64,000 nt of DNA, taken from assembly GCA_963708075.1 (NCBI GenBank), contig OY970194.1, positions 3,680,001-3,744,000 on the forward strand. Reading direction: 5' to 3'. This DNA comes from Sedimentisphaerales bacterium (GTDB taxonomy: Bacteria; Planctomycetota; Phycisphaerae; Sedimentisphaerales; Anaerobacaceae). Position 1 is the stretch's first letter; each line of letters opens with the position of its first letter. Both the position numbers and the translations under genes were made by a program. Below the pieces are notes generated by a model, which worked only from the letters and a program-made list of their open reading frames with translations, was not told the DNA's origin and did no database searches. This document shows, piece after piece, positions 3,121-22,366 of this stretch.

Positions 3121-4521
3121 TCATACCACCTTGAGGCTGCGGAGTTCTTTGTCCCAGGGGCTGCGATACGGACGCGTCAGCATCTCGTTGGCCTGCGGAT
3201 CGCCGACAATCTGCTCCTTCTCCGCGTCCCAGGTGATCTTGCGCCCGACCCGCAGGGAGATATTGGCCAGGTGACACGTGGTCGCCACCTGGTGTGCGCT
3301 CTCGATATCGGCGAGCGGCTGCTTGCGGGAGCGGATACATTCCAGGAAATCGCGTGCGTGCGCGACGTAGTCCTGGGTGCCGTTGCCACTGGTGTCCTTG
3401 ACCTTCTCGGTCCAGGTCTGGTCCTTCGGCTCCGGCGTCGGCTGCGGCCCGCCCACGGGATGGCCGCCGAGAATATTGGCCATGGTATTGAACGGGTTGG
3501 CCTTGCGATCCGGGAACACCTCATAGCCGCTGCGGCCGACCGACATCATGCCGCGAGTGCCGTAGAACATGACGCCGCCCATCCCCAGGCCCTCGCGCCC
3601 CGCCGTCGCCTCGCGATAGACGCAGATGCCCGTGAAGCCGGGGTAGTCGATCAGCACGTCCTGGCTGTCGGGCGTCTCCATATTGTCCTTCAGGTAGGTC
3701 CGCCCGCCGGTGCTGTACACCGATTTCGGCGCATTGGCGCCGGTGAACCACTGCACGATGTCCAGCGAGTGCTGGCCGAGGTTGGTCATCTGCCCGCCGG
3801 CGTAGTCCCAGATCCAGCGGAAATGATAGATGCCGCGATTGGGGTTGTACGCCCGCGCGGGGGCCGGCCCGAGCCACATGTCCCAGTCTAATTCCTTGGG
3901 CGGCTCCTGGTCCGGCGGATTGCCGAAGCCGGGCATGAGGTTGCGGCAGTAGGTGTCCTGCACGGCCACGATCTCGCCCAGTTTGCCCTGCTGGATGAAC
4001 TCGCGGGCGCGCTGGAAGTTCGGTCCGGAACGGTTCTGCACACCCACCTGGACCACTCGCTTGTATCGCTTTGCCGCGTCGATCATCCACCGTCCTTCGC
4101 GCACAAACAGCGTGAGTGGTTTCTCGACGTACACGTCCTTGCCCGCCGCACAGGCGAGCATTGTGATCATGGCGTGCCAATGGTCCGGCGTAGAGACCAC
4201 CACGGCGTCGATGTCCTTGTTGTCGAGCAGCCTGCGAAAATCACGGCACTTCGTGACGTTGCCTCCGACGATCTCGGCCCCAACGTCCGCGCGCGGGTCA
4301 TACGGGTCGCAGATGCCGAGGACGGAGACATCCGGTTGCGCTGCGAAGTTACGGGTGTGAATGCGTCCCATCAGGCCGATGCCGATCATGCCGATGCCGA
4401 TCCGTTCGTTGGCGCCGTGGACGCGCGACCAGGAGGCCGCCGTCAGTGCCGTGGCCGCTCCGGCCTTCATCAATGTCCTGCGCGTCATTCCCCCGTCATG
4501 CTGCTTGGGTGCTTGATTCAT
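3121..4521 (-). CDS. Gfo/Idh/MocA family oxidoreductase, Tat signal
   Basis: TRRTLM; IGIGLMG Rossmann motif; TPDHWH; VYVEKP; DWDMWLGPAP. Confidence 0.92.
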   Translation of the reverse strand: MNQAPKQHDGGMTRRTLMKAGAATALTAASWSRVHGANERIGIGMIGIGLMGRIHTRNFAAQPDVSVLGICDPYDPRADVGAEIVGGNVTKCRDFRRLLDNKDIDAVVVSTPDHWHAMITMLACAAGKDVYVEKPLTLFVREGRWMIDAAKRYKRVVQVGVQNRSGPNFQRAREFIQQGKLGEIVAVQDTYCRNLMPGFGNPPDQEPPKELDWDMWLGPAPARAYNPNRGIYHFRWIWDYAGGQMTNLGQHSLDIVQWFTGANAPKSVYSTGGRTYLKDNMETPDSQDVLIDYPGFTGICVYREATAGREGLGMGGVMFYGTRGMMSVGRSGYEVFPDRKANPFNTMANILGGHPVGGPQPTPEPKDQTWTEKVKDTSGNGTQDYVAHARDFLECIRSRKQPLADIESAHQVATTCHLANISLRVGRKITWDAEKEQIVGDPQANEMLTRPYRSPWDKELRSLKVV

Positions 4522-5699
4522 CGGTAGGTCTCCTTTGTCTCAATATTGTCACGCACGAATCGCCTGGCGGCCCGGTCGAGGAGCTCCCGGCCGTGCGTGA
4601 TAGCATACTCCAAATCCATCCCGTCCTCCATACAGGAGACGGCAGCCTCAATGCCGGCCCGACGATATTCTCCCGGCGACAAGCGGACCTGTCCAGCGAG
4701 AACCGCGACTTTGGCCCCGGCGGCTTTAGCGACGCGGATGACCCCGGACACGACCTTGCCACGAAGGGACTGCTCGTCAAACGAGCCCTCGCCCGTAATC
4801 ACCCAGTCCGCGCCGGTGATTGTCTCCTGCAGCCGGGTCTGCGCCATGACCGTGTCGATGCCGCAGACCAACCGGGCATCCATGAAGGCAATCGCTCCCG
4901 CCGCCAAGCCCCCAGCCGCTCCCGCCCCCGGCACCTCGGCAACATCCCGGCCAAGCTGCTCCTTGACCACTCGGGCCAGATGCGCCAGAGCTGCGTCCAA
5001 CATCTCCACCATCTCCGGCGTCGCACCCTTTTGCGGGCCGTAGACGCACGCCGCCCCATGCTCGCCGCAGAGCGGATTGTCCACGTCACACAGCACCTCG
5101 ACAGCCGCGCTTGTAGTGACGCCGTAAGGCGTTTCTTCAGATGCCCTCACGGGCACACTACGAACAGGGGCCACGATCCTGGCAATTCGCGGGAGTTCGC
5201 CACCGCCCAAGCCAATTTCCTGCCCATCGGCTGCGAGGAATCTCCAGCCCAGTGCCATAGCGGCACCCACTCCGCCATCGACGGTTGCACTACCCCCGAT
5301 GGCAAGCAGAATCCGCCGCGCTCCGTAATCGACAGCGGCCTTGATGAGCTGTCCCACTCCGTAGGTCGTCGTTTTCAGGGGATTGCGTTGTTCAGGGCGC
5401 AGCAGTTGCAGACCCGCGGCCGTCGCCATTTCTACGACGGCAGTTCCGTCCTCGGCGAGCCAGACGAAACCGGCATCCACTTTCATGTCCGGCAGCGGGC
5501 CCATCACGATTCGACTGATCCACTGTCCGCCGGCGACCGCCATGAGGACCGAGCCGGTTCCTTCGCCGCCGTCGGCCATCGGCTTGGTGACAACCTGGAC
5601 GTGCGGCATCACGGAACGAATCGCCTGAGCCACCGTCTCACACGCCTGCACGGCCGTGAGCGAGCCCTTGAACGAATCGATAGCCACGACAATCTTCAT
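4518..5699 (-). CDS. glxK: Glycerate kinase (GlxK/GarK family)
   Basis: MKIVVAIDSFKGSL, PMADGGEGT, GGSATVDGG, CDVDNPLCG, YGPQKGA, TGEGSFDEQSLRGK; start overlaps the LarA stop. Confidence 0.93.
   Translation of the reverse strand: MKIVVAIDSFKGSLTAVQACETVAQAIRSVMPHVQVVTKPMADGGEGTGSVLMAVAGGQWISRIVMGPLPDMKVDAGFVWLAEDGTAVVEMATAAGLQLLRPEQRNPLKTTTYGVGQLIKAAVDYGARRILLAIGGSATVDGGVGAAMALGWRFLAADGQEIGLGGGELPRIARIVAPVRSVPVRASEETPYGVTTSAAVEVLCDVDNPLCGEHGAACVYGPQKGATPEMVEMLDAALAHLARVVKEQLGRDVAEVPGAGAAGGLAAGAIAFMDARLVCGIDTVMAQTRLQETITGADWVITGEGSFDEQSLRGKVVSGVIRVAKAAGAKVAVLAGQVRLSPGEYRRAGIEAAVSCMEDGMDLEYAITHGRELLDRAARRFVRDNIETKETYR
5113..5161. repeat. GTAG-type REP doublet in frame within glycerate kinase
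   Basis: GTAGTG-ACGCC-GTAA-GGCGT and, on the other strand, GTAGTG-TGCCC-GTGA-GGGCA. Confidence 0.75.
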
Positions 5700-6979
5700 A
5701 GGTTCCGCCCATTCACGACGTACGGAATCGTCTGCGTGCCGTCGGGCAGGATGCAGATGGATGCATCCCGACCGTACGTATGCAGCAGCCGGTCCACGGT
5801 TGCCGCAATATCCCGGCACGGCTTAAGCATGGCACGCTCGATCTCCTCGTCGGCCAGATGACGGCTGAACAGGTACACGTCGTTCTTCCCGCAGACGGCG
5901 GCGTGAATCTGCACCTGCCACGCGTCCTGGCAGCAACAATCGCCGGCCCGAATCATCGCAAGCAGCGAGGCAGGACTGTCCGCCTCGAACAGCAGCCGCT
6001 TGTACCAGCCGTGATCGGGGATACCGTCCTCACACTCCGCGGCCACGATGATCGTCCCGCCTTCCTTGACGATCTGCGAGGCAGCGCTCATCCCCTTCAC
6101 CGATTGGTAAAGGTTCAGATCGAGCGGATAGCCCGAGTTGCTCGCGATCACAATATCGTATCTCTTCTGTACCCCTGCCATGGCGTGTTGCTTCACAAAC
6201 GCGCAGCCCTGCTCGTGTGCACGGTCCAAATCCCCGGCGAAAACCGCGGTGATCTGCTTTTCGCGATTCAGCGCCACATTGAGGAGAAACGTCGATGGCG
6301 CCATCAGGGCGGCGTCTCGAATCCCCTCCCAGACAGGGTTGCCGCGCGTGACGCCCCATGCGGCCCCGGGATCGTCGATGTTCCTCGCGTTGTGGTTCCG
6401 CATGATGGTTTCCAGGCGTGCCATGCCCGGCATGCAGGCCTTGCCCCCGCCGGAAAAGCCGGCGAAGAAGTGCGGCTCGATGAAGCCTGTCAGGATTCGC
6501 ACGTCGCAGCGAAGATATTCTTTGTGAAGCCAGACCTCGTTGCCGCCAGCGGTCGTGCCCACCAGGGCGTGCGCGTCACGGTCTCGCGCATCGTTCTGCA
6601 CGATGCGGAACCGCTTCACCACCTGCTCGCCGAACATCGTTGCAAGTTCCTCCGGGGTGCAAGGCCTGTGCGTCCCCGTGGCAATCAGCAGCACGATGGC
6701 GCTGTCATTGACATGGCTCAGCTCGTCGAGCAGAACCGGCAGAATCGTGCGATACGGCGTCGGACGCGTGATATCGTTGCAGACGATGGCGACCGCGTCC
6801 GAGGGTTTCACCAACTCCCTCAGCGGCGGCAAGCTGATGGGAGCACGCAGGGCATCCCGCACCGCGCCGGCCTGATCGGCAAGAGCCTCCACGTGCTGCC
6901 GCTGGACGACATCCACGTTCAGACCGTCCGGCAGGCTCAGGTCCAGGCCCCTCTTGCCATATGCGAGCTTCATCTTCAC
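5696..6979 (-). CDS. larA: Nickel-pincer dependent LarA-family 2-hydroxyacid racemase
   Basis: DITRPTP, ATGTHR, EPHFFAGFSGGGK, GYPLDLNLYQSVKG motifs. Confidence 0.92.
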   Translation of the reverse strand: MKMKLAYGKRGLDLSLPDGLNVDVVQRQHVEALADQAGAVRDALRAPISLPPLRELVKPSDAVAIVCNDITRPTPYRTILPVLLDELSHVNDSAIVLLIATGTHRPCTPEELATMFGEQVVKRFRIVQNDARDRDAHALVGTTAGGNEVWLHKEYLRCDVRILTGFIEPHFFAGFSGGGKACMPGMARLETIMRNHNARNIDDPGAAWGVTRGNPVWEGIRDAALMAPSTFLLNVALNREKQITAVFAGDLDRAHEQGCAFVKQHAMAGVQKRYDIVIASNSGYPLDLNLYQSVKGMSAASQIVKEGGTIIVAAECEDGIPDHGWYKRLLFEADSPASLLAMIRAGDCCCQDAWQVQIHAAVCGKNDVYLFSRHLADEEIERAMLKPCRDIAATVDRLLHTYGRDASICILPDGTQTIPYVVNGRNL

Positions 6980-6995
6980 GAGGGCAACACCCTGA

Positions 6996-8282
6996 CTATA
7001 CGTTCCTGATCAGCGACAAATCACCGCTCGCAGCCGCTTCGAGGATCGGCCGCATGTATGTGTCCACCGTCTCCGGTGTCATTGGCACCGGCATGTTCTG
7101 CAGCTTTGATCGCAACTGCGGGTCCCTGGCCGCCGTTAGCGCCCGCTCGATGTGACCCGGTCCAAATCCAGCCACGTCACTCAGCCGTGTCGGAACGCCA
7201 ACCTGACGGGCAAATTCGAGCATCGTCCGAGCAACGGCCACGCCCAGCTCCCTGCTCTTCAGCTTCTCCGGATCCTCCTGCATCAGACCCGCCTCGCGAT
7301 AGATGCGGCTGACGAGCCGCAGCGGCTCTTCAATGGCGGGAGCAAAGAACACCGTATAATACGGATTCATGATGCCGCAGGCCCGTCCGTGCGACAGGAT
7401 GTCCACCAGCGAGAAGCTGGTCAGATGCCCTCCGCTCGTGCCGCCGACCATGATCGCATAGCCGCCCAGGTCCGTCGCCAGGCACAGCGCCTCCCGCGCC
7501 TCTGCATCCTGCGGATCGGCCATCACACGAGGCAGATGAGCCACAACCAGCGAGATACACGCCTCGGCGATGTCACGCGCCTTGTCGTAGTACGGCTTGC
7601 CCACGGCGCCATAGAGGACCTCCAGCGAGTGCGAGAGGCCATCGAGAGCCCCATCCGCCGCCAGTGCTTTCGGCGTGCTAAAGCTCACCTGATAGTCAAA
7701 GACGCAGCGTGCCGGGACGATCGCGTCATCGACGACCAGTTTCTTCTGTGCGGTCGCCACGTCGGTGATATTCGCGTACTTCGTCAGATGCGCCGCCGAG
7801 CTGGCTACTGTCTGAATCGCTACGTGGGGCAGGAGGGATTTCTCTGTTTTGGCCAGAGCCGCCGAGACCAGACCGACGCCGAAGTAGTCGTCGATCCGGC
7901 CGCCAAGCGCATAGAGCACATCGGCGGCTTTGGCCGCGTCGATCGTGCTGCCACCGCCGAAGCTGATGAGCACCTCCGGCTTTGCCTTCCTCACTTCTTC
8001 CGTGATACGCAGGAGGTCTTCACGCGGCGCGTTGGGCCGGGCGCCTTTGATCTCGGCATCAATGAACCCACCCGCCTCAACGACCGCCAATTGTATAATC
8101 CGGGCGAAGTCGTCGCTGTGAGGAAACGTGCCGCGGACCAACGCGGCCCGCGATCCGAGCGACGCGACCATTTCCCCCATCTCAGACAGGACCGTCTTGC
8201 CAAAGAGATAAGCGTCGCCCTTGAACTGACGCAGCAGTTCTCGGGCGTTGTCGAAGTCGGCCTTCGTTCGTCGTTTCATCAT
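6996..8282 (-). CDS. Iron-containing alcohol dehydrogenase family protein
   Basis: PNAP, GGGSTIDAAK, DGLSHSLE, GHL...SHGRAC metal ligands. Confidence 0.88.
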   Translation of the reverse strand: MMKRRTKADFDNARELLRQFKGDAYLFGKTVLSEMGEMVASLGSRAALVRGTFPHSDDFARIIQLAVVEAGGFIDAEIKGARPNAPREDLLRITEEVRKAKPEVLISFGGGSTIDAAKAADVLYALGGRIDDYFGVGLVSAALAKTEKSLLPHVAIQTVASSAAHLTKYANITDVATAQKKLVVDDAIVPARCVFDYQVSFSTPKALAADGALDGLSHSLEVLYGAVGKPYYDKARDIAEACISLVVAHLPRVMADPQDAEAREALCLATDLGGYAIMVGGTSGGHLTSFSLVDILSHGRACGIMNPYYTVFFAPAIEEPLRLVSRIYREAGLMQEDPEKLKSRELGVAVARTMLEFARQVGVPTRLSDVAGFGPGHIERALTAARDPQLRSKLQNMPVPMTPETVDTYMRPILEAAASGDLSLIRNV

Positions 8283-8288
8283 GCAGCC

Positions 8289-9110
8289 TCAATTCATTTC
8301 GAACCCACCATCGACGTTGAGCGTCTGGCCGGTAATGTAGTCGGCGTCGGCCGAGCAGAGGAAGGCCACCGCCCCGGCCACATCTTCGACGCTGCCCGCC
8401 CGCTGCAGCGGGATCTTCTCAATGAAGGCCTTCATCGCCTCGCCGGGCTGGGCTCCCATGATCCGGCTGCGGTCGCGGTCGATCTGCTCCCACATGGGCG
8501 TCGGGACCACGCCCGGGCAGACGGCGTTCACATTGATATTGTACGGGCTCAGGGCCAGAGCCGCCGATTGCGTGACGCTGATGATGGCTGCCTTGCTCGC
8601 CGCGTAGGCCATCTGCACGCTGCGTCCGCGCCGGCCGGAGATCGAGGAGAAGTTGACGATCTTGCCGTGGCTGCGTTCGGCCCGCCCCTGCGCGATCACC
8701 TCCTGCGGGACCTGCCCGATCATCTGCCGGGCCACCGCCTGCATGCAGAATACCGTCCCCTTGAGATTGACGTCGATCACGCGATCCCACTCCTCCTCTG
8801 TAAGCTCCAGGAAAGGCGTCGTCTGGGCGATCCCCGCCGCGTTGACCAGAATATCGATCCGGCCGAACTCGGCGATCGTGCGCCCAACCATCGACTCAAT
8901 CTCAGCCGGATGCGCCACGTTCAGAGCGTACGACCGAGCCCGCCGATCCAATGCGAGCGCATCACCTGCCGTTTGTTCAGCCGTCTCAGGGTTGATGTCC
9001 ACGACGACGATGTCCGCTCCCTCGCACGCGAGGCGCAGCGCGACGGCTCGGCCAATCCCCCGGCCGGCCCCCGTGACAACCGCCAGCTTGCCTGAAAACC
9101 GTGACTCCAT
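8289..9110 (-). CDS. SDR oxidoreductase, polyol/sugar-acid dehydrogenase-like
   Basis: TGAGRGIG, NAAG, YAASK catalytic motif, CPGVVPTPMW, ITGQTLNVDGG. Confidence 0.9.
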   Translation of the reverse strand: MESRFSGKLAVVTGAGRGIGRAVALRLACEGADIVVVDINPETAEQTAGDALALDRRARSYALNVAHPAEIESMVGRTIAEFGRIDILVNAAGIAQTTPFLELTEEEWDRVIDVNLKGTVFCMQAVARQMIGQVPQEVIAQGRAERSHGKIVNFSSISGRRGRSVQMAYAASKAAIISVTQSAALALSPYNINVNAVCPGVVPTPMWEQIDRDRSRIMGAQPGEAMKAFIEKIPLQRAGSVEDVAGAVAFLCSADADYITGQTLNVDGGFEMN

Positions 9111-9188: not shown

Positions 9189-10825
9189 CTACCGATGACA
9201 AAAGACATCGGCGGCCACATCGCACAGGAATCGTCTGATCCTGTCGTGGTACTGCCGGTAGAACTCCGCCGGGAGGCTGTAGAACATGGGCCGGTTGACG
9301 AACTGGCCGTGCTGATCGCGCCTGCCGACGGAGGCAAAGTTGTAGTGGTGAAATACCGCGTGATGCGGCGAGGGAGCCGGATCGCCGCCGCTCTCGTACT
9401 CGCGGAGGCAGCGCACGGCGAACCCCGATCCGGCCGCCGCCTCGCGGCGCGCGTAGGTCAGGGTGTCGTCCCACCACAACTGGAACCGCTCCCGATCACA
9501 CTCCCACAGCACCTGGCCGAAAATGACCTGCAAGGAGGGCGACACTTTGAAGTGGTTTCGCCCCTCAGTGGCACGGCCTATGGCCTGCCGGGCGGCGGCG
9601 GACAAATCATCGCCGGAGTGGATGTCCAGCATGATGTCGGAGTCCACGGCGATGGCGTGGAGCCGCCGGAGCCGCTCCCCAAATTCGACCAGGCCGGCCG
9701 CATCGTAGTCCTGTCCCTTGACAATGCCAACGTTCGGAGCGATGTGCGTCATGGGAATCCCCCGTCGCCTTAATTCTTCAGCGAGGAAGGTCAGTTCCGC
9801 TTCCGTGGTCAGGCAGGCGGAGGCCGTCATGCCCGGCGGGCACTCATCGATGCTCAACTCGAGATCGAAGGGGGCATCGGCCTTGAGATTCTTGATATGC
9901 GCCGCGAGTTCTGCTACGACATCAAGGGCTGCTCCATACTTCCGATCTATGTAGCCCAGCCGCCCTCGGCTGGGATCACCCCCGGGGGCGGGGGTGCTAC
10001 ATTGTAAAGTCTGCGCTTTATAATCAATGATGTCGGAGACATCGAGCGTAAAGAACGTGTAGTCGCGGGCGGCGTCGATGATGCGCTTGGCTCGTGCCAG
10101 CCCGCCCGGGCCTCGCCGGATCGTGATATGGTCCGCATCCGCCCCATACACGGGGTGCGTGTCCGTCTTCAACGCCTCGATTACGCCGGCCACCCAGAGG
10201 CCCTCGAATGTGCTGCCGGTGTGTCCTTCGTCGAGCGTGCCGAAGCCGTACAGATAGTTGCTCCGTGGCGGCCGGCCCGCCAGCACATCCTCCAGGAGAT
10301 TCAGCTCGCGCACGGAATTCTGGATGGCATTTGACGTAAATTGGCCCTCGTCCATCGCCTGCCAGATGCCCGGCCAGACGGATGTGGACATCCGTGTGCC
10401 GATCCCCAATCTTGGTACGGCCCCCATTGCCCGGGGGCCCTTGTCCGGCCGCAGCGTTCCGATGTAGCGTCGAATCGTCGCCAGATCAGAGGCGTACACT
10501 GCCAGAAACAGCTCCTCAGTCAAAGGCATTTTATGTAGCGTGTCGCCGAGGCAGCCTGTGTTCCGTTCTGGTCCAATCTCGACAAAGACATGCTGGCCGT
10601 CCGACAGTCGAGCGAGGCAGTACACGTTCTGACCGTGCTGCCGCAGGACCCGCGATAAACCTCGCAGGATTTGTGGCCGGCGACGATCCGACCCTCCGTG
10701 ACAGCCTTCCAGTACGAGGGCTCCACAGAAGCAATGACGCGCCACGCCCGTTCCGGGTCCCACGTGACGGTGTCCAGGACAGCGGGGTTGACCGCCGGAT
10801 CGATCTCGAGTTGACCGAATCTCAT
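9189..10825 (-). CDS. uxaE: Divergent tagaturonate/fructuronate epimerase (UxaE family), apparent 1-bp frameshift near 10646
   Basis: QNSVREL, GADADH, FTLD, ELSIDE, APN..KGQDY, IHSG, HFK follow the UxaE motif order; N-terminus MRFGQLEI... lies in another frame and joins at EVYRGS/LRQHGQ. Confidence 0.72.
9951..10000. repeat. GTAG-type REP doublet in frame within the UxaE-like gene
   Basis: GTAG-CCCAGCCG-CCCT-CGGCTGGG and inverted GTAG-CACCCCCG-CCCC-CGGGGGTG. Confidence 0.85.
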
Positions 10826-10838
10826 AGTCTGGGCAGCG

Positions 10839-10908
10839 ATGGTAATGTGCCGAGCCCGCACCGTCAATCCAAGAAACCGTTGCCATGCCATCCGCCATCC
10901 CGTATAAC
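10839..10908. promoter_or_regulatory. Putative back-to-back sigma70-type promoters
   Basis: Minus strand TTGACG-N17-TACCAT (10867-10839) before ATG 10825; plus strand TTGCCA-N17-TATAAC (10880-10908) before ATG 10915. Confidence 0.5.
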
Positions 10909-10914
10909 TCGGCC

Positions 10915-12472
10915 ATGGCGCGTGACGAACACAACAGGCACAACCCACCGGAGCCCGCGCAGACCGCAGGGATCGAGTCCCCGCCCCGGACGGTTCTGGG
11001 CACGCTGAGCCGGCTCGGGCCGGGCATGATCATCGCCGGCTCCATCGTCGGCTCCGGTGAGCTGATCCTCACGACCAAAGCCGGGGCCGAGGCGGGCTTC
11101 TGGCTGTTGTGGCTGATCATCATTGGATGCGTGATCAAAGTCTCCACGCAAATCGAGTTCGCCCGGCACACGATCACCTGGGGCGAGACGCTCGCTATCG
11201 GCCCTCAACGGCGTGCCCGGCCCCCGGCTGAGGGTCAACTGGCTCCTGTGGTACTGGACCTTCATGACGATCCTCGTCGTCTTCCAACAGGGCGGCATCC
11301 TCGGCGGCGTCGGGCAGACCCTCGCGATCGGCTGCCCCCTGACCCACGACGGAGCCGAGTACAACCGCCTGCAGGATGAGCTGGTCAGGAGCCAGATCGA
11401 GCGCCAATCACTCCTGGCCCAAGGGCACAATGACCCGCAGACCGCGGCGCTGCAGCAGGATATCGACCGGCTCAAAGAGCAGATCGCGGGCCGAAGCGAG
11501 CCCAGCGACCCGTACTTGTGGGCGGCGATCCTGGCCGTCGTGACGTCAATCCTGCTGTACGTCGGCAGGTATCAGCTCATTCAGGTTATCGCAACGGCAC
11601 TCGTGGCGACCTTCACGCTCGTGACCGTCCTCACCGTCGTTGCGCTGCAGATGCGGACCGGATGGGCCATTCGAGTTGAGGAGCTGGCGCAAGGACTCAG
11701 TTTCCACTTGCCGCCCGCCGACCCTGCCAGCGGCGCCAACCCGATGCGCACGGCCTTCGGGGCTTTCGGCATCATCGGCATCGGGGCCGCGGAGCTGATC
11801 ATGTACCCCTACTGGTGCCTGGAGAAGGGGTACGCAAGGTTCACCGGCCCTCGTGACGGCACGGCCGGGTGGATCGTGCGCGCCCGCGGCTGGATTCGCG
11901 TGCTACACATCGATGCCTGGACCTCCATGGTCGTATACACGTTCGCGACGCTGGCCTTCTACCTGCTCGGCGCCGCCGTGCTCGGCCGGATCGGGCTGCA
12001 CCCTGGAGACCGTGACATGGTCCCCACGCTGGCGGCCATGTACATCCCCGTCTTCGGCCCGCTGGCGTATGTGATCTTTCTCTCCGGGGCGTTCGCCGTG
12101 CTGTACTCGACGCTCTTCGTCGCCGCCGCGGGCAATTCGCGGATGGTCGCCGATGCTCTGGGGCTCTATCGCCTCGCGGACGGTTCGGAGGCGGGCAGGA
12201 CCGTGTGGACGCGCCGAATCAGCGCGGTCTGGCCCTTTGCTGCATTGATCCTGTATGTATTCGTGCGAGCGCCGCAGACAATGATCGTGGTCTGCGGTCT
12301 CGCTCAATCCGTCATGCTGCCGTTGCTCGGGGCGGCGGCGCTATACTTCCGCTATCGCCGGAGCGACCCGGCCCTGCGCCCGGGCCGGCTCTGGGACACC
12401 ATGCTCTGGGTTGCTTTCGCGGCTTTCCTGGCCGTCGGCGGCTGGTCGGTCTTCACCGTCCTCGCAAGATAG
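10915..12472 (+). CDS. Nramp/APC-fold transporter, apparent 1-bp frameshift near 11191
   Basis: LGPGMIIAGSIVGSGEL, then GET/SLSALNGVPGP across the shift; YPYWCLEKGY; many TM helices. Confidence 0.82.
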
Positions 12473-12500
12473 GTCCCATAGGTCCTATCCGTCCTATCCT
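12469..12500. repeat. Degenerate 9-mer tandem array between convergent genes
   Basis: ATAGGTCCC ATAGGTCCT ATCCGTCCT ATCCT. Confidence 0.6.
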
Positions 12501-13387
12501 CTTACCTGCACCTTGGCAAGTTGCTCGTAGAACTCGATGATCCCCCCGTGATCGTTGCCGGCTTTGCCGCCCGCCTTCAGGGCCTGCAGGACCTCCATCA
12601 CCACGCTCGACAGCGGCACGGGCACGCCAAGCTCGTGAGCGGTATCCAACGCGTTGGCCATGTCTTTGATGTGCAGCTCGATCCGGAACCCCGGCTTGAA
12701 ATTGCCCTTGAGAGCCAGCGGCATCTTGGCTTCCAGCACGGCGCTGCCCGCCAGGCCGCCCCGGATCGCCTGGAAGACCTTCTCCGGCTCGACGCCAGCC
12801 TTCGTCGCCAGGACCATCGCCTCGGATACTGCCGCAATGTTCAGGGCTACGATGATCTGGTTGGCGAGCTTGGCGACGTTGCCGCTGCCAATGTCGCCCA
12901 CACGAGTGACGGAAGAGCCCATCGCGGCCAGGATATCCTTGACCTTCTCGAAGACATCCTGCGGCCCCCCCACCATGATCGCCAGCGTCCCGGCAATGGC
13001 CTTGGGCTCGCCGCCGCTGACAGGAGCATCGAGCATGGCGATGCCCTTTTCCTGGACCTTGGCCGCAATCTCGCGGCTGGCTAATGGTGAGATCGAGCTC
13101 ATATCAATCAGGATCGTTTCGCGTCTGGCGCCCTCGAGCACGCCGTTGGGCCCAAGCACGGCCTCGCGCACGTGCGGCGAGTTCGGCAACATCGTGATAA
13201 CGATGTCGCTCTTGGCAGCGACATCTTTGCTCGACGCCCCCTTCCGGGCGCCGACCTTGGCCAGCTCATCCGCCCTCTGAGCGACGATATCATACACGGT
13301 CAGCTCGTGTCCTGCCTTGACAAGATTTTGGGCCATGGGCTTGCCCATGATCCCCAACCCGATGAATCCAATTTTCGCCACGGCCAA
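12494..13387 (-). CDS. garR: 2-hydroxy-3-oxopropionate (tartronate semialdehyde) reductase
   Basis: IGFIGLGIMGKPM, DAPVSGGEPKAIAGTL, KLANQIIVALNIAA, NFKPGFRIELHIKD, FYEQLAKV closely follow GarR. Confidence 0.9.
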   Translation of the reverse strand: MAVAKIGFIGLGIMGKPMAQNLVKAGHELTVYDIVAQRADELAKVGARKGASSKDVAAKSDIVITMLPNSPHVREAVLGPNGVLEGARRETILIDMSSISPLASREIAAKVQEKGIAMLDAPVSGGEPKAIAGTLAIMVGGPQDVFEKVKDILAAMGSSVTRVGDIGSGNVAKLANQIIVALNIAAVSEAMVLATKAGVEPEKVFQAIRGGLAGSAVLEAKMPLALKGNFKPGFRIELHIKDMANALDTAHELGVPVPLSSVVMEVLQALKAGGKAGNDHGGIIEFYEQLAKVQVRG

Positions 13388-13436: not shown

Positions 13437-14470
13437 TTACAGCCGAAGATTCTCCATCAGCTTCCAGCCGCTCTCGATGAACTGCGAGAGCGTTCTCTGT
13501 GTGACGCCGTAGGTGATGAAGTCGGCCGGTTTCATACCGTCGGGCTCGTACGCACGCACGAAGTCCGGGATCTGCGACAGCCGCTCGATCACATCGGCGG
13601 GAATCTCTCTGTCGATTCGCTCTTCCTGCGGCAGCTCCGGCGCCAGCAGCATCTCCTGAATCGACGGGAAGATCGACATGATGACCTCGGCCCCGGCCAG
13701 TTCCGTCATGTGATGCGTGCCTCGCAAGGCCGCGACCAGCAGGACCGTCTCATAGCCGCGCTGCTTGTAGATGGAATAGGCCCGCTTCGTGACGGCCAAT
13801 CCCGCCTGGCGGATGTCCGACTCGCTGACCTCGGCCCGGCAGTCATGGGCGACCTCCCGCAGATAATCATCCAGCCGACCGATCATGATCACGGCGAAGC
13901 ACTTGCCCGGCGTGACGCCTTTGGCCCTCGCCCGCTGCAGGCCGCGCCGGTACCGCTCCGCAATCGCGATGGTCTGCGGAACCGTGTAGCTGATCGTCAG
14001 CGTGCACGTGATGCCTTCGGCGGCGCAGTCCTCCAGCACGTCGAGCCCCGCCGCCGTCGCGGGCAGCTTCACGGCGATATTCGGGGCCCACCGGGTGAAC
14101 CGCCGGGCCATGGCCAGCATGGTCTCGCGGTCCCCTGCCCGATTCGGATTCACCTGGGCACACACGTGCCCTGTCGCCCAGCGGGTCTTCTCATACTGCG
14201 GCAGCAACTGTTCGGCCACGTGCGCAACCACTATCCGCATCAGCCCTTCCGCGCGATTCTCCGGCTCAGCGCTTTGGGCAAGCACGTTCTTGATTTCGGC
14301 CGCCCATGCGGTCTTGTTGGCCGAAAGTGCAACGCTGGCCAGAAACGGGTTGGTCGTCGCCCCGATGGCCCCGCGCCTGATCCCAGCGCCAGTTCCGCCG
14401 GATCGGCGGAATCATGCCACCAAGTTGTCTTCGTTCTGTCAGTCAACCACTGCAGGTACTGTTGTTTCAT
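13437..14470 (-). CDS. Transaldolase/FSA-family Schiff-base enzyme, apparent 1-bp frameshift near 14383
   Basis: WWHDS, GATTNP, VCAQV, NIAVKLPATAAG, IMIGRLDD, AALR; adding one G to the GGG run at 14382-14384 fuses ORFs 14240..14524 and 13437..14285. Confidence 0.87.
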
Positions 14471-15443: not shown

Positions 15444-18400
15444 CTACAATTCGCTGCGCACGTGCACCTGCGGGACGGCGACGATGCCGGCCTCCCAGAG
15501 CTGGTAATCGTTCGACCACTGTCTGCCGCCGGTGATCCAGTGGCCGGGGCCGTAGGCGTCGGAGCGCTTGGGGACCAGGTGCAGCGGGCCGAACGTGTTA
15601 CGCCGCGTCAGGACCACATCCACGGAGATCGTGTCGCTCTCGCGGGCATCCTCCGTGATTTCCGCCTCATACGGTTGCCAGGCGATCATGCGCGGGGCAT
15701 GGCCCTCAGAGGAAACCTTCGCACAGGCGGCCTCAAACTCGGGTAGCTCGATGAAGAAACGCTCGCCCCCGGTCGGTCGCGGTCCCAGCGGGACCTCATA
15801 GCGGATCGTGCCGGAGTAGAACGGCAGGCCCTGCCTGGTGACATCGCCCGCCGCCAGCTTTTCGGGCAGATCGATCAGGACGCTCGATGCGCCTTCGATT
15901 CGTACGCCGAACTTGCCGATGAGATAGACGGCCTCGATGTTCTTGTCCTCGGAGAAGGCCATCTGCAATTCGAGCGAATTATCGCCCTTGATCAAGGCGT
16001 CCCCGGGCAGCGGGATTCTCCTGATGGCTGGGTCGATCCACCAGCCGGCGGGCTCAGAGGCGATCTGCCGGCCATTGAGTCTGATCATGAAGTGCTCCGG
16101 GTGCTCGATGCACAGTGTGACCGGCCCGGCCGGCACCGCCTCCGCGCGGAACGCAAAGGCCATCGTGACCTGGCCTTTGACCGGCGGCTGCGGTGAGTAC
16201 TTCCTGCTGAACCACGGCTGGACCATCTCCCCGCCGCGATGGGCCAGGCCGAACTGGTCCCGCACCGCCTGGTCGATCTTCAGGACCTCTTTCGCCTCCC
16301 GCCAATTGCCTTCGTCAATCCAGTACTTTGCCATATCGAGCACGCACACGTTGTCCTCGTTGAGGCTGTACTCGAACGGCCCGTCGCAGGCCCGTGTCTG
16401 CTTCTGCACGTACCGGGGCTTGGGCGCGATCCCTGCTGGTTTGTTGGCCGAGATCACGTAAGCATGTTCGCCGGAGGGCGGGAAATCCGCCCTGAATTCA
16501 AGGGTCCCGTCCTTCTCCTGCGCATCGATGGCGTACCGCTCGGCAGTCAGGCAGTTCCACTCTGCAACGTATCCCGCACCCGGCACGCGGATCACCGCAT
16601 CCTTGTACCCCTTGTCCCGGTTGACGTTCATGGCTACGAGGATTCTGCGGCCGTCGTCCACGCGCATCTGGCAGAAGATGTCCGTCAGTGACTCGCCGGA
16701 CTTTGCGTCCACGATCTGCACCGGCGGCCGGATGTGCTTCTTGACCTCGGCAATCACGCTTTGTCGGTCGAAGTTGCACTGGCTCACGTGCTTCGCGATC
16801 GCTGACGCAAGCGGGACCTCTTTCGCATCGACATACGCCGGTGGATCGCCCGCGAAGATCACTTTGCCGCCGGCCTTGTAGAACTTGTACAGCGTCATGA
16901 GCGTGTCGACGCGTATCGTGGTCATCTTGCCGACGAGGACCGCACGATAGGGCGCTTGGCCCACCCAGAGCACAGGCTGACCATCGGCGCCCGTCTCGAT
17001 GCGGCACAGGCGGCTCATCATCTCCTCGTCGCCGTAGTCGAAGTCGATCTGGGCCCCGGCCAGCCAGTGGAACAGGTCGAAGTACGCCCGCTCGATCTCT
17101 TGCACGGCGGCGTCCTTCGGTGTGGCTATATTGTGCGTCCAGTCCGCGTGCACCTGGCACCACAGGCTCTCGACGGGATTGATCACGAGCAGGTCGCAGT
17201 AGGGCTTGCCCTGCTGCAGAAGCAGGCCGAGCCGGGCGAAATAGGTCTCCACCGCCGCATAGTCCCGCCACCAGCCGGACTGGTAGAAGATGCTCGCCGG
17301 GTAGTCTCGCTTCGCCTCGCCCTCCATCGTGTACCACGCCAGGTGGGGACATCGCACATTGATCCCGAACAGGGCCTGCCAGTCGCCGATGGCCTTGTGG
17401 CCCTCGAAGTCGAGCTGCCAGCCGGTCACGCCGTCCAGCTCCGACAACAGCCATTTCTGCCCGAGCTGCCGGGCGGCCGAGCTGAGCTGCTTGACGATCC
17501 AGTAGCTACGGTTGCCCTCGGTGAGCACGTCCACGCCGGGACTGTGCATGGACTCGTAGAACCGCATGAGCGAACCCTGCATCGTCGTCTGGGCGGTCAG
17601 CGTGTCCTCATGCAGGACGTGGCCGGTCAATAGCATGTGATTCCGCTCGCACCAGTCGTAGATCGGCTCGGCCCAGTTTTCGAGGAACAACTGCTGGCAG
17701 GTCTCGACATAATAGTACTTCGTCAGGGTGACCGGCTGGCCATCCGGGCGAAGGAACAGCTCCGGCAGAGAATCCACCAGGTCATACCCGATGCGATATT
17801 GGAACTCCTCCGGCAGCTTGTCCGTCCAGGGAGTCATCCAACTGCCATCCGCGTTCGATATGCCGAACCCGCACATGAGGGCCCCGCGGTGCGGCTCGTC
17901 GGTGAAGATCCCTCGGATCGACTTGCCCAGCCGGTCGCCGCAGCGGGCCTTGTACTGCTCGTGCGTGAGCTTCAGGAAGTAGTCCGTCGCCTCGCGGTTC
18001 ATCGTGTCCGCGTACGTGTAGCCGTTATAGAAACTGCTCGGCGCCATCTCCTCAATGGTGAACACGAGAATAGTCTTGCCCGCATAATCCGAGGCCGACG
18101 TGTCACTGGGGATCCGCACGCAGTTGGAGTAGTCGAGCCCTTTCAGGTCGCAGGCAAACGCAGCGTAGATACCGTCTTTCCAGGTGAATTGCTCCGCCGG
18201 CACAGTCCGGAGCTTCATGAACTTGAGCCGGTACTTCGGCTCCTTCGTGACCAGCCCGCCCGCCGTGCCCGAAGGCCAGCGGTCCTCGTCATACAGCCAC
18301 GCCTCCATGCTCAGCTTCTCCGCCTCATCCGCACAGGCGTTGACCAGCGAGAACCACTCGTCCCCCAGGTACTCCGTCGCCAGCCCGGTCCGCGAGTGCA

Positions 18401-18647
18401 TGAAGAACCCGCCAAACCCCATGTCCTTCATGACATGGATCTGTCGGATCAGCTCATCCTTCTTCAGTTCCCCATTCCAAGCCCAAAACGGCTTGCCCCG
18501 ATACTCCGCCGGCGGCTCCCGAAACTGTGCGTATAACTGCCCTGCCGGCTTCGCCCGCCCCGCCCCCCGCAACCCTGCGCAGCCAGCGCCCAATACAACC
18601 ATCAGGACGAACAGCGAGGCGAGAATGAAACGGCATGCATATCGCAT
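15444..18647 (-). CDS. GH106-like (alpha-L-rhamnosidase-type) glycoside hydrolase, lipoprotein
   Basis: LGAGC lipobox; PFWAWNG, GFGGFFMHSRTGL, WLYDEDRWPSG, IFTDEP, PGVDVL, KRDYPAS. Confidence 0.8.
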   Translation of the reverse strand: MRYACRFILASLFVLMVVLGAGCAGLRGAGRAKPAGQLYAQFREPPAEYRGKPFWAWNGELKKDELIRQIHVMKDMGFGGFFMHSRTGLATEYLGDEWFSLVNACADEAEKLSMEAWLYDEDRWPSGTAGGLVTKEPKYRLKFMKLRTVPAEQFTWKDGIYAAFACDLKGLDYSNCVRIPSDTSASDYAGKTILVFTIEEMAPSSFYNGYTYADTMNREATDYFLKLTHEQYKARCGDRLGKSIRGIFTDEPHRGALMCGFGISNADGSWMTPWTDKLPEEFQYRIGYDLVDSLPELFLRPDGQPVTLTKYYYVETCQQLFLENWAEPIYDWCERNHMLLTGHVLHEDTLTAQTTMQGSLMRFYESMHSPGVDVLTEGNRSYWIVKQLSSAARQLGQKWLLSELDGVTGWQLDFEGHKAIGDWQALFGINVRCPHLAWYTMEGEAKRDYPASIFYQSGWWRDYAAVETYFARLGLLLQQGKPYCDLLVINPVESLWCQVHADWTHNIATPKDAAVQEIERAYFDLFHWLAGAQIDFDYGDEEMMSRLCRIETGADGQPVLWVGQAPYRAVLVGKMTTIRVDTLMTLYKFYKAGGKVIFAGDPPAYVDAKEVPLASAIAKHVSQCNFDRQSVIAEVKKHIRPPVQIVDAKSGESLTDIFCQMRVDDGRRILVAMNVNRDKGYKDAVIRVPGAGYVAEWNCLTAERYAIDAQEKDGTLEFRADFPPSGEHAYVISANKPAGIAPKPRYVQKQTRACDGPFEYSLNEDNVCVLDMAKYWIDEGNWREAKEVLKIDQAVRDQFGLAHRGGEMVQPWFSRKYSPQPPVKGQVTMAFAFRAEAVPAGPVTLCIEHPEHFMIRLNGRQIASEPAGWWIDPAIRRIPLPGDALIKGDNSLELQMAFSEDKNIEAVYLIGKFGVRIEGASSVLIDLPEKLAAGDVTRQGLPFYSGTIRYEVPLGPRPTGGERFFIELPEFEAACAKVSSEGHAPRMIAWQPYEAEITEDARESDTISVDVVLTRRNTFGPLHLVPKRSDAYGPGHWITGGRQWSNDYQLWEAGIVAVPQVHVRSEL

Positions 18648-18684
18648 TTCGGTTCTCCAAAGCAGGGATGTGCAACAATGAATC

Positions 18685-18726
18685 AAAACGCAAAGGACGG
18701 AGGAGAGCGATGTCTCCCCTCCGTCC
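18685..18726 (-). terminator. Possible intrinsic terminator
   Basis: GGACGGAGG...CCTCCGTCC stem followed by TTTGCGTTTT on the minus strand, just after stop at 18742. Confidence 0.5.
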
Positions 18727-18741
18727 ACTATTTCACAGCTT

Positions 18742-20366: not shown

Positions 20367-20846
20367 TCATTGGTGCCCGCCGCCGCGGAGCATCTCGATG
20401 GCGTGCGGCAGGAGGTCCAGGATCACCTCCAGGCACTCGCGAACGGCCGTGGGGCTGCCGGGGAGATTGATCACAAGCGTGCCGCCGCGAATGCCTGCGA
20501 CAGCCCGCGAGAGCACCGCGCGGGGAGTCTTCTCGAATCCCTTGAGCCTCATCAGCTCACCGAAGCCGGGGACCATGCGGCTGCAGACAGATGCCGTGGC
20601 CTCGGGAGTGACGTCTCTCGGTCCGAATCCCGTTCCGCCCGTCGTCAGCAGCAGCTCGACCTCCCCATCATCCGCGAGTCTCACAAGCTCGGCGGCAATC
20701 GCGTCCCGGTCATCGGGCACGACGGTCCTTTCCGCCACGACAAACTGGTCGCCGGACAGCATCTCCTCAACGGTCCGGCCGCTGACATCTTCGCGCTCGC
20801 CCCACGAGCAACTGTCACTGACGGTTACTATGCCCACTCGAATCAT
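20367..20846 (-). CDS. mogA: MogA/MoaB molybdopterin adenylyltransferase
   Basis: VTVSD, VPDD, TTGGTGFGPRDVTPEA, LSRAVAG, NLPGSP. Confidence 0.92.
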   Translation of the reverse strand: MIRVGIVTVSDSCSWGEREDVSGRTVEEMLSGDQFVVAERTVVPDDRDAIAAELVRLADDGEVELLLTTGGTGFGPRDVTPEATASVCSRMVPGFGELMRLKGFEKTPRAVLSRAVAGIRGGTLVINLPGSPTAVRECLEVILDLLPHAIEMLRGGGHQ

Positions 20847-20854
20847 AGGCAACC

Positions 20855-21394
20855 TCAATCGTGTCCCCCACTTTGCTCCGGCCTTTTATAGTCGCCACTA
20901 TGCCCACCCGTCTTTTCCAAAAGCCGGATGCCGTGGATAGTCATGCCCTTGCCTGTGTACTTGAGCATATCATAAATGGTCAGGCACGCCGCCGCAACAC
21001 CGTGCAGGGCCTCCATCTCGACGCCGGTCTTGCCCGACGATTTCACCGACACTGTCACAATCACCGATTCATTCGCCTCGTCGAGTGCAAAGTCCACGTC
21101 GATGCCCTCGATAAGGATCGGGTGACACATGGGAATGATGGCAGGCGTGGATTTCACCGCCTGGATCGCCGCCACCTTCGCGGTCGCGAGCACATCGCCC
21201 TTCGGGCACGTCCCGCGACGGAGAGCATCGAACGCCGCCTCGCCCAAGAGAATGGAGCCCCCGGCTTTTGCCGTCCTCACGGTGATTTCCTTGCCACTGA
21301 CATCGACCATGCCCTTCGATTGCGGATTGCGGATTGCAGATTGCGGATTATCGCCGCGACTGGAATCCGAAATTGGCCTGCCTTTTCTTTTCAC
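20855..21394 (-). CDS. moaC: Cyclic pyranopterin monophosphate synthase
   Basis: MVDVSGK, KGDVL, IPMCHP, TGVEMEAL, TIYDMLK, EKTGG. Confidence 0.95.
   Translation of the reverse strand: MKRKGRPISDSSRGDNPQSAIRNPQSKGMVDVSGKEITVRTAKAGGSILLGEAAFDALRRGTCPKGDVLATAKVAAIQAVKSTPAIIPMCHPILIEGIDVDFALDEANESVIVTVSVKSSGKTGVEMEALHGVAAACLTIYDMLKYTGKGMTIHGIRLLEKTGGHSGDYKRPEQSGGHD
21318..21349. repeat. Heptamer tandem array (GATTGCG)n at the 5' end of moaC
   Basis: GATTGCG GATTGCG GATTGCA GATTGCG GATT, again NPQSAIRNPQS. Confidence 0.9.
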
Positions 21395-21399
21395 CAGCC

Positions 21400-22362
21400 C
21401 TACCCTCCGATCTGCTGCATGAGGAAATCGCCCGCGGCGGCGTTCAGTTTTGTGTGCTGATTCTTCTCTCGCAGCGCTTTTCGCAGCAGGCTCAGGATCG
21501 CGTCATCGCCGGCGCCGCCTCGCAGGAGCTTCTTCACGTCATAAGAGTACCCGTCATACAGACAGGGCTTGATTCTGCCGTCGCTGCTCAGCCGCAGACG
21601 CGTGCACTGCCTGCAGAATACCGAGGACCGTCCACTGATGAACCCGATGGCCCCGGCGGCGTTCTCAATGTTGAAATACACGGCGGGTCCGCCGCTGTCG
21701 GGCACCACGAGGGCCGCGAGCGGTCCGAATCTGGATTCAATGGTGGCGCGGACCTCGCTATTCGGAACGTAGCAGCTTGCCGGCCCGGTGAGTCTGGTCG
21801 TCGGGCAATACTCGATGAATCGGACTGCCACCGGCAGACGAAGGCTCATCTCGGCCAAGGCCTCCACCTGCGACAGGTTCACGTCCCGCATGACAACGCA
21901 GTTGATTCGCACAGGCGCCAGGCCGACATCCAAGGCCCTGTGCATGCCGTCGATCACCCGCGACAGCACATCCGCCCCGGCAATCCGCCGGTAACACTCG
22001 CGATCCAGCGCGTCGAGGCTGATGTTGACCCGCCGTAAGCCTGCCTCTTTGAGCTCGGCAGCCATCGAGGCAAGAAGCACGCCGTTGGTCGTCATGGACA
22101 GGTCATCGACGCTTGGAATCCCCGCGAGCCTCTGCACGAGATCGACGATATCCTCCCGCAGCAATGGCTCGCCCCCCGTCAGGCGGACCCGCCGGATCCC
22201 GCACTGCGAGCAAAGCCCGACCACACGGACGATCTCATCCGTGCCCAGAGTCCCCTGACCCTCTGCGAGATGCGCGTGGCCGAGCGGATTGCAGTAGATG
22301 CACCGCAGGTTGCACCGGTCCGTGACCGAGACTCGCAGATAGTCTATGTTCATTGCCGGCAT
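21400..22362 (-). CDS. moaA: GTP 3',8-cyclase (radical SAM)
   Basis: YLRVSVTDRCNLRCIYC, TGGEPL, FCRQCTRLRL..PCL, C-terminal IGG; exact start uncertain. Confidence 0.95.
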   Translation of the reverse strand: MPAMNIDYLRVSVTDRCNLRCIYCNPLGHAHLAEGQGTLGTDEIVRVVGLCSQCGIRRVRLTGGEPLLREDIVDLVQRLAGIPSVDDLSMTTNGVLLASMAAELKEAGLRRVNISLDALDRECYRRIAGADVLSRVIDGMHRALDVGLAPVRINCVVMRDVNLSQVEALAEMSLRLPVAVRFIEYCPTTRLTGPASCYVPNSEVRATIESRFGPLAALVVPDSGGPAVYFNIENAAGAIGFISGRSSVFCRQCTRLRLSSDGRIKPCLYDGYSYDVKKLLRGGAGDDAILSLLRKALREKNQHTKLNAAAGDFLMQQIGG

Positions 22363-22366
22363 CAAT

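Follow-up and report, generated by a model that had tools for sequence, protein, structure and literature searches.

Why should a gene of the lactate racemase family run directly into a glycerate kinase gene? The question is raised by a DNA stretch of 64,000 nucleotides from a Sedimentisphaerales bacterium (Planctomycetota, Phycisphaerae; GenBank assembly GCA_963708075.1, contig OY970194.1, positions 3,680,001 to 3,744,000), referred to below as the window, in which larA is followed by glxK. The source genome is 92.8% complete. An earlier note on this DNA had read larA as a glycerate racemase serving GlxK, and this reading is supported by the pocket of the protein (F,F,W,Q), by the published racemization of glycerate by enzymes of the LAR clade, and by a repeated linkage of larA to glycerate kinase genes. 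Judging from these sequence data, we consider it fairly likely that the operon role of larA is the conversion of L-glycerate to D-glycerate for the adjacent kinase. The features at issue are as follows.

5696..6979, minus strand: larA, proposed glycerate racemase of the LAR-clade nickel-pincer type, an open reading frame (ORF) of 427 amino acids with a GTG start
6464..6472, minus strand: codons H170-F171-F172 of larA, the catalytic His and two pocket residues (H174, F175, and F176 of LarA1)
5915..5920, minus strand: codons W354-Q355 of larA (W358 and T359 of LarA1; Q as in the glycerate-preferring LarAH43)
5696..5699, minus strand: overlap of the larA stop and the glxK start, ATGA (TCAT on the plus strand)
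4518..5699, minus strand: glxK, class I glycerate kinase (PF02595, 7e-130; TIGR00045)

The ATGA overlap pointed out in the earlier note is present in the window sequence, with the larA stop at 5696-5698 and the glxK ATG at 5699-5697. Taken alone it carries little weight, because glxK itself runs into the following gene, an unrelated one of the Gfo/Idh/MocA type, through an identical ATGA (4518-4521), and because relatives have anywhere between 0 and about 280 bases separating larA from glxK; as functional evidence it was rejected. The database protein for larA (P0002) has 425 amino acids, compared with 427 for the ORF from 6979 to 5696, which makes the ATG at 6973 a possible true start. The product of glxK, which is 41 to 43% identical to E. 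coli GarK and GlxK, is the sole class I glycerate kinase found in the genome, and its gene is present in single copy.

Racemization of glycerate by LarA proteins has already been published, in vitro only, and its physiological context is apparently unreported. According to PMC11770544, glycerate is racemized in vitro by LarA1, LarAH51, LarAH43, and LarAH42, all four of the LAR-clade enzymes in Table 2; the LAR pocket is given as F,F,W,E/Q, Q359 is suggested to explain the glycerate preference of LarAH43 (kcat/Km of 114e3 for glycerate versus 83e3 for lactate), and the physiological role of the reaction is left by the authors to be determined. A search of the open full-text literature, which covers few subscription journals and no bioRxiv supplements, returned no paper on "glycerate racemase," none joining lactate racemase, glycerate kinase, and operon, and none joining fructuronate, transaldolase, and tartronate semialdehyde; the gene-context table in the accessible part of PMC7583248 lists no glycerate kinase. 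Since the chemistry of the proposal is already published, the question becomes whether glycerate racemization is the job of the window larA.

By its sequence, larA encodes an intact LAR-clade LarA. The product scores 504.7 on the NCBIfam model NF033504 LarA (cutoff of 460) and falls below the cutoffs of the malate, LarAH10, LarAH14-16, and hexonate families, with 25 bits against a cutoff of 500 on the hexonate-epimerase model NF052594. The Lar_N and LarA_C domains and the LarA fold that mark the superfamily are present, the AlphaFold model (predicted local distance difference test score of 91.8) giving template-modeling (TM) scores of 0.90 to 0.96 to solved LarA structures, with I. pallida LarA (9EID, 0.96) as the closest match. 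Residues D69, R72, H104, H170, K180, H196, Y291, Q292, and K295 are all in place, and R72, H104, H170, K180, H196, and K295 map one to one to R75, H108, H174, K184, H200, and K298 of L. plantarum LarA, meaning that the catalytic His108 and His174, the nickel ligand His200, the tethering Lys184, Arg75, and Lys298 are kept. These conserved residues predict a nickel-pincer hydride-transfer mechanism. Alignment to L. plantarum LarA gives F,F,W,Q at the four pocket positions, which is a LAR-type pocket and matches neither the E,V,A,H pocket of the GntE epimerases nor the H/Q,K pocket of the malate racemases (MAR), and the same 13-residue signature occurs in 111 of the 120 closest database homologs. 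The larA product very likely racemizes glycerate in vitro and probably racemizes lactate as well; given this likely lactate activity, it is better viewed as a glycerate/lactate racemase that has been taken into service for glycerate.

Gene neighborhoods offer a way to ask what the protein has been recruited for. Among the 130 loci examined, 24 of the Phycisphaerae type or from metagenomes have glxK downstream of larA in the same orientation, a number that includes the window and many close kin. A second set comes from the Bacilli, where 27 of 301 genomes carry a close larA homolog. Besides that of genome G184, 20 of the 26 loci were fetched, strong full-length matches being favored, and in 13 of these 20, glxK lies at most two genes from larA; a CdaR-like regulator is found alongside in 11 loci, and 9 loci have a KdgT-like permease. 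The Neobacillus locus L012 has the arrangement of the glxK-linked Bacilli loci plus larE, larB, and larC, its CdaR-like and KdgT-like labels being below NCBIfam cutoffs. The Bacilli gene order is opposite to that of the Phycisphaerae, with glxK first in 13 of 14 loci. In a FastTree phylogeny of 127 loci (3 short sequences were dropped) with five named plasmid LarAs as references, one of them from L. plantarum, the Bacilli proteins form a separate clade with a support of 1.0. As for the kinases, the Bacilli and Phycisphaerae GlxK groups are no closer to one another than to that of E. coli.

The compact form of the Bacilli operon, cdaR-glxK-(KdgT-like permease)-larA-(larE larB larC), is seen at L012:6331-17067 and in L233 to L239, L246, L249, L251, and L252, and is a candidate L/D-glycerate utilization operon with a glycerate permease of the KdgT family. 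An experimentally validated D-glycerate operon of the form sdaR-permease-garK is described for Shewanella (PMC2996990), and by comparison with it the addition of a racemase to a regulator-permease-kinase operon would most simply mean access to L-glycerate. A third arrangement, in the metagenome locus L181, reads aldehyde oxidoreductase-larA-enolase-MOFRL kinase, the MOFRL glycerate kinase having an unrelated fold. A gene for an aldehyde:ferredoxin oxidoreductase also stands beside larA in L171, L174, L190, and L196, with enolase in two of the five loci including L181, which suggests glyceraldehyde oxidation followed by racemization. Across the 130 loci, a glycerate kinase gene was found within 3 kb of larA in 38 of the 104 loci whose LarA carries W-Q at the last two pocket positions versus 0 of the 23 with W-E, and in 31 of 66 versus 0 of 14 when at least 1.5 kb was available on both sides, kin not being independent in either count, for which reason we read no probability from the P value of the association. 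Gene context supports a glycerate role in three lineages of the tree, and such repeated linkage in separate lineages is the pattern to be expected of a dedicated glycerate racemase.

In the window, larA and glxK close a sugar-acid cluster that runs, from its far end, aldolase-like gene, garR, Nramp-like transporter gene, UxaE-like gene, short-chain dehydrogenase gene, Fe-ADH gene, larA, glxK, with all but the divergent transporter gene on the minus strand.

6996..8282, minus strand: iron-type alcohol dehydrogenase (Fe-ADH) of a subfamily without a name (PF00465; below every NCBIfam cutoff), candidate L-glycerate-forming reductase
8289..9110, minus strand: short-chain dehydrogenase (SDR), top match to the L-iditol 2-dehydrogenase family, below cutoff
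9189..10825, minus strand: distant UxaE-like epimerase (PF16257, 4e-13), with a frameshift at 10641
10885..12472, plus strand: Nramp-like transporter, divergently transcribed, with a frameshift near 11190
12494..13387, minus strand: garR, tartronate semialdehyde reductase (NF008592, 476.7 against a cutoff of 397; 60% identity to E. coli GarR)
13437..14470, minus strand: transaldolase-fold class I aldolase-like gene, with a frameshift near 14384

The three single-base frameshifts, which would make three genes of the cluster look like pseudogenes, are likely assembly errors. Those at 10641 and 11190 are each contradicted by a single low-depth contig of sequencing run X1, which at 10641 carries an extra base, and a 91%-identical relative (L126) does not have the one at 14384, where run X1 has no depth and lists no indel. 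An intact UxaE-like ortholog in L011 matches UxaE structures in the PDB weakly (1e-5 to 4e-3). In the aldolase-like protein the Schiff-base Lys and both anion-binding Arg are kept, and E96, F178, and S226 of TalB are replaced by Q, M, and A; if, as we assume, these positions have the roles that they have in TalB and FSA, the Q and M changes remove both acid-base residues. We rejected a description of the protein as a plain FSA, as it has the FSA-like Gln but a Met where FSA has a Tyr, and it may be either an aldolase or a transaldolase. Further members of its family are found at L011:2261-3295 and L040:12049-13287, and in L040, L146, and L152 the UxaE-like gene is preceded by a member of a second transaldolase-fold subfamily, 27% identical and with the same Gln and Met changes.

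In the route that we infer, with all of its enzyme activities and the chirality of each intermediate, UxaC (its gene is present in the genome) and the UxaE-like enzyme would supply D-fructuronate, which the aldolase-like enzyme would cleave to a C3 unit and L-tartronate semialdehyde. A share of this aldehyde would racemize spontaneously and be pulled by GarR to D-glycerate, while the other share would go straight to L-glycerate in a reduction for which the Fe-ADH is the likeliest enzyme; LarA would then convert L-glycerate to D-glycerate for GlxK. We take E. coli GarR and class I GlxK to be D-specific. The stereochemical premise of the earlier note, that retention of the C5 stereocenter of D-fructuronate leads to L-glycerate, is borne out by Fischer projection: 5-keto-D-mannonate (D-fructuronate) and 5-keto-D-altronate (D-tagaturonate) both have a C2 that leads to L-glycerate, and cleavage of either yields L-tartronate semialdehyde, whereas 5-keto-D-gluconate yields the D form. 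The Fe-ADH is the most frequent neighbor of larA and is compatible with the part of L-glycerate-forming reductase; in seven loci of the genus it is not beside larA.

With E. coli proteins as tblastn queries, no match to uxuA, uxaA, kdgK, garL, or garD was obtained in the genome; a Pfam search for UxuA gave a single match of 59 residues with two stops inside, and DhaK was not found, next to two glycerol kinases that were. We do not claim the cluster as the sole hexuronate sink, as a D-mannonate oxidoreductase gene and a hexonate-epimerase-like LarA paralog lie elsewhere in the genome (C1:6977254-6982018, locus L278, about 13 kb from larE). Paralogs of this kind, also seen in L113 and L114, occur widely across the family, where they may constitute a second route for hexuronates. 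A third LarA paralog (C1:5215329-5216833; L279:7329-8833) is nearest to malate racemase models and is split over two frames. Upstream of the cluster, at 15444-18728 and 20367-22398 (both minus strand), lie a GH106-like rhamnosidase gene, which is outside the conserved cluster, and the molybdopterin genes moaA-moaC-mog.

The cluster recurs across the family with rearrangements. Of the 24 genomes of the genus, 11 have both a close larA (at least 67% identity) and the aldolase-like gene and the other 13 have neither, a pattern explained in part by block inheritance. In a family sample of 150 genomes, each of the two genes is present in 16 (a 34%-identity match in G081, taken as a paralog, is left out of the larA count) and both are present in 10, compared with 1.7 expected. 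The Fe-ADH gene occurs in 25 of the 150 genomes and in 15 of the 16 larA carriers, and glxK in 14 of these 16. The Fe-ADH subfamily also accompanies larA in varied contexts, with UxaE, transketolase, lactate permease, aldehyde oxidoreductase, or distant LarA paralogs (for example, L038, L051, L110, L150, L165, L174, L184, L188, and L266), and it occurs beside glxK alone. Split or fused transketolase genes stand with Fe-ADH and larA, often along with a TIM-barrel epimerase gene, in L038, L150, L156, L165, L184, and L272, possibly a transketolase-based form of the sugar-acid route. Several loci have a gene of the Asp/Glu-racemase family close to Fe-ADH, larA, and glxK (L043:8302-8979, L051:8353-9030, L105:12170-12934, L134, and L150); genome G151, which lacks a close larA, has such a gene by glxK and Fe-ADH, a possible metal-free alternative racemase.

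Several observations weigh against a glycerate racemase in this operon. A D-selective GarR together with spontaneous racemization of the aldehyde could make a racemase unnecessary, and the LarA step is probably helpful more than indispensable; a related fungal tartronate semialdehyde reductase strongly prefers D-glycerate (Km of 17.7 versus 123 mM; PMC3031564), and a class II glycerate kinase retains 30% activity on L-glycerate (PMC2063504). The identifications of the UxaE-like and aldolase-like proteins come from weak homology, and both the substrate and the L-forming reductase are putative. glxK is in any case frequent in the family, with 81 of 151 genomes having it. Six of the 16 family genomes with the aldolase-like gene are without a close larA, four of them being 92 to 97% complete (G056, G057, G091, and G118), and G078 and G147 have Fe-ADH directly before glxK with no larA. 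As for the protein, 66 of the 104 W-Q loci have no glycerate kinase nearby, the F,F,W,Q orthologs L044, L046, and L050 stand behind a lactate permease and a FAD/Fe-S dehydrogenase, and I. pallida LarA, likewise W-Q, ranks L-glycerate third after lactate and 2-hydroxybutyrate (PMC11851776). Because these proteins share W-Q, the pocket signature fails to separate glycerate from lactate; the whole 13-residue signature is identical in L044, L046, and L050 and does not set the proposed glycerate racemases apart from these lactate-context orthologs. In genome G023, finally, the gene immediately preceding glxK encodes a distant LarA with F,M,W,E, and so the link to the kinase is not exclusive to Q. 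On these grounds Q355 was rejected as a sufficient marker of glycerate activity.

The same loci bear on the reading of larA as an ordinary lactate (short-chain 2-hydroxyacid) racemase, with the position of glxK reflecting shared regulation or operon history, which we regard as unlikely. Lactate racemase is the NCBIfam family name of the product, the three orthologs with lactate permease and dehydrogenase are 61 to 64% identical to it, G139 retains the UxaE-SDR-Fe-ADH cluster and yet has its larA in a lactate operon, and the genome of the window encodes a distant homolog (31%) of the lactate-operon dehydrogenase. However, the lactate-permease loci form with L047 a single small clade (support of 0.994) nested among Fe-ADH- and GlxK-linked ones, no match to the lactate permease was found in the window's genome, and a chance linkage would leave the cdaR-glxK-permease-larA operons of the Bacilli and the MOFRL/enolase locus unexplained.

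It also seems improbable that the enzyme is a C2 epimerase of larger acids, turning D-fructuronate into 5-keto-D-gluconate or interconverting threonate and erythronate. The former reaction has an appeal, as 5-keto-D-gluconate would be cleaved straight to D-tartronate semialdehyde, suiting a D-selective GarR and dispensing with an L-forming reductase. Gene context keeps a tetronate role possible, with DtnK-like and PdxA2-like genes by larA in L012, L241, and L165 and transketolase genes in L038, L051, L150, L165, and L184. LAR-clade enzymes do epimerize 4-deoxytetronates, albeit weakly, LarAH43 being about 670- to 1,400-fold slower on deoxytetronates than on glycerate; Table 2 reports no hexonate activity for them, among substrates that exclude 5-keto-hexonates and plain tetronates, and the pocket of gluconate epimerases is E,V,A,H, not F,F,W,Q (PMC11770544). 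Furthermore, the genome has in the paralog at L278 another LarA that is nearest to the hexonate-epimerase family, at a score of 175 against a cutoff of 500.

The preferred reading, L-glycerate racemization for GlxK, has in addition to account for the supply of the nickel cofactor. The earlier note had stated that larB, larC, and larE are not in the window; genome-wide searches (the window was not scanned gene by gene) agree, placing larB at C1:908472 and larE at C1:6991897, both outside it, and finding no larC with a hidden Markov model or with tblastn and two LarC queries. Two of the three genes could thus be located. larC was not found in any of the 24 genus genomes (our own and 23 relatives) or in any of the 16 larA carriers of the family (4.1 expected), though it is present in 38 of the 150 family genomes, and this leaves cofactor maturation without an explanation, a further point against the preferred reading. 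It bears on cofactor supply, not on the family membership of LarA. As Lar_N genes, that is, LarA homologs, occur in 110 of 151 family genomes and larC in 38, the gap affects the clade at large and is no peculiarity of the window larA, and these counts suggest an unrecognized nickel-insertion route rather than decay. PMC13510736 describes LarC as needed for nickel insertion, and in the accessible parts of PMC13510736, PMC13524815, and PMC11796402 genomes without larA are discussed, not genomes without larC. That LarA should be inactive in this lineage for want of LarC, dormant or dependent on a scavenged cofactor, is very unlikely, as the full catalytic set is retained in 111 of the 120 closest homologs, all five of the larC-less larA carriers tested have larB and four of the five have larE, the family counts point away from decay, and the Bacilli orthologs have larC alongside.

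The zero overlap between Fe-ADH (25 of 150 genomes) and larC (38 of 150) brought up Fe-ADH as a LarC substitute; the idea was rejected because many genomes with LarA homologs have neither gene (for example, G063, 97% complete) and because Fe-ADH stands beside glxK without larA in G078 and G147. No conserved LarC replacement beside larB or larE was recognized by eye from ORF starts in nine regions of relatives and in our own genome, without a profile scan.

A wider reading can be advanced tentatively. According to it, a dedicated nickel-pincer glycerate racemase would extend from the Phycisphaerae to the Bacilli, would close an undescribed hexuronate route that proceeds by way of a UxaE-like epimerase, a transaldolase-fold aldolase, L-tartronate semialdehyde, and L-glycerate to D-glycerate, and would be matured without LarC by an unrecognized nickel insertion.

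Family and chemistry are known here; what is new is an apparently unreported physiological context together with the larC gap. The neighborhoods point to a concrete physiological role for a glycerate racemization so far known only in vitro, and, if this is true, many "lactate racemase" annotations need revision and L-glycerate gains a catabolic route. The small cdaR-glxK-permease-larA(-larEBC) operons, predicted to confer growth on L-glycerate, offer a tractable system in culturable Bacilli, and a clade with larA, larB, and larE in which larC was not found makes a second nickel-insertion mechanism directly testable.

Among characterized enzymes, LarAH43 of Enterocloster asparagiformis (LAR group; PMC11770544), likened to the larA product by pocket description only, shares with it Q at the position of T359 and a LAR-type pocket, and its preference for glycerate over lactate in vitro is about 1.4-fold. 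LarA1 of L. plantarum and T. thermosaccharolyticum LarA (2YJG), the latter being the top PDB sequence match (1e-79), share the fold (TM scores of 0.90 to 0.94), the catalytic and cofactor-binding residues, and the F,F,W part of the pocket with the window protein, but they are about 33 to 35% identical to it and have T or E at position 359, where it has Q. L. plantarum larA1 lies within a larABCE operon, whereas the window larA lies within a sugar-acid cluster of a genome in which larC was not found. The LarA of I. pallida (Sar, LarAH2; 9EIA and 9EID) has W-Q at positions 358 and 359 and racemizes L-glycerate, but at 34% identity the two residues that follow its catalytic His are L,M and not F,F, resulting in a wider pocket and broad specificity. 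The GntE D-gluconate/D-mannonate 2-epimerases (LarAH19, LarAH20, and LarAH15) also belong to the LarA superfamily and lie in uronic-acid clusters, with an E,V,A,H pocket in contrast to the F,F,W,Q of the window LarA.

At the level of the pathway, the GarL-GarR-GarK system of E. coli and the sdaR-grtP-garK system of Shewanella have the same exit through a class I glycerate kinase, with a tartronate semialdehyde reductase in the glucarate/galactarate route, and their CdaR/SdaR regulator recurs in the larA loci of the Bacilli. However, the E. coli and Shewanella routes yield or import D-glycerate and have no racemase, whereas the cluster described here has a transaldolase-fold cleaving enzyme and LarA.

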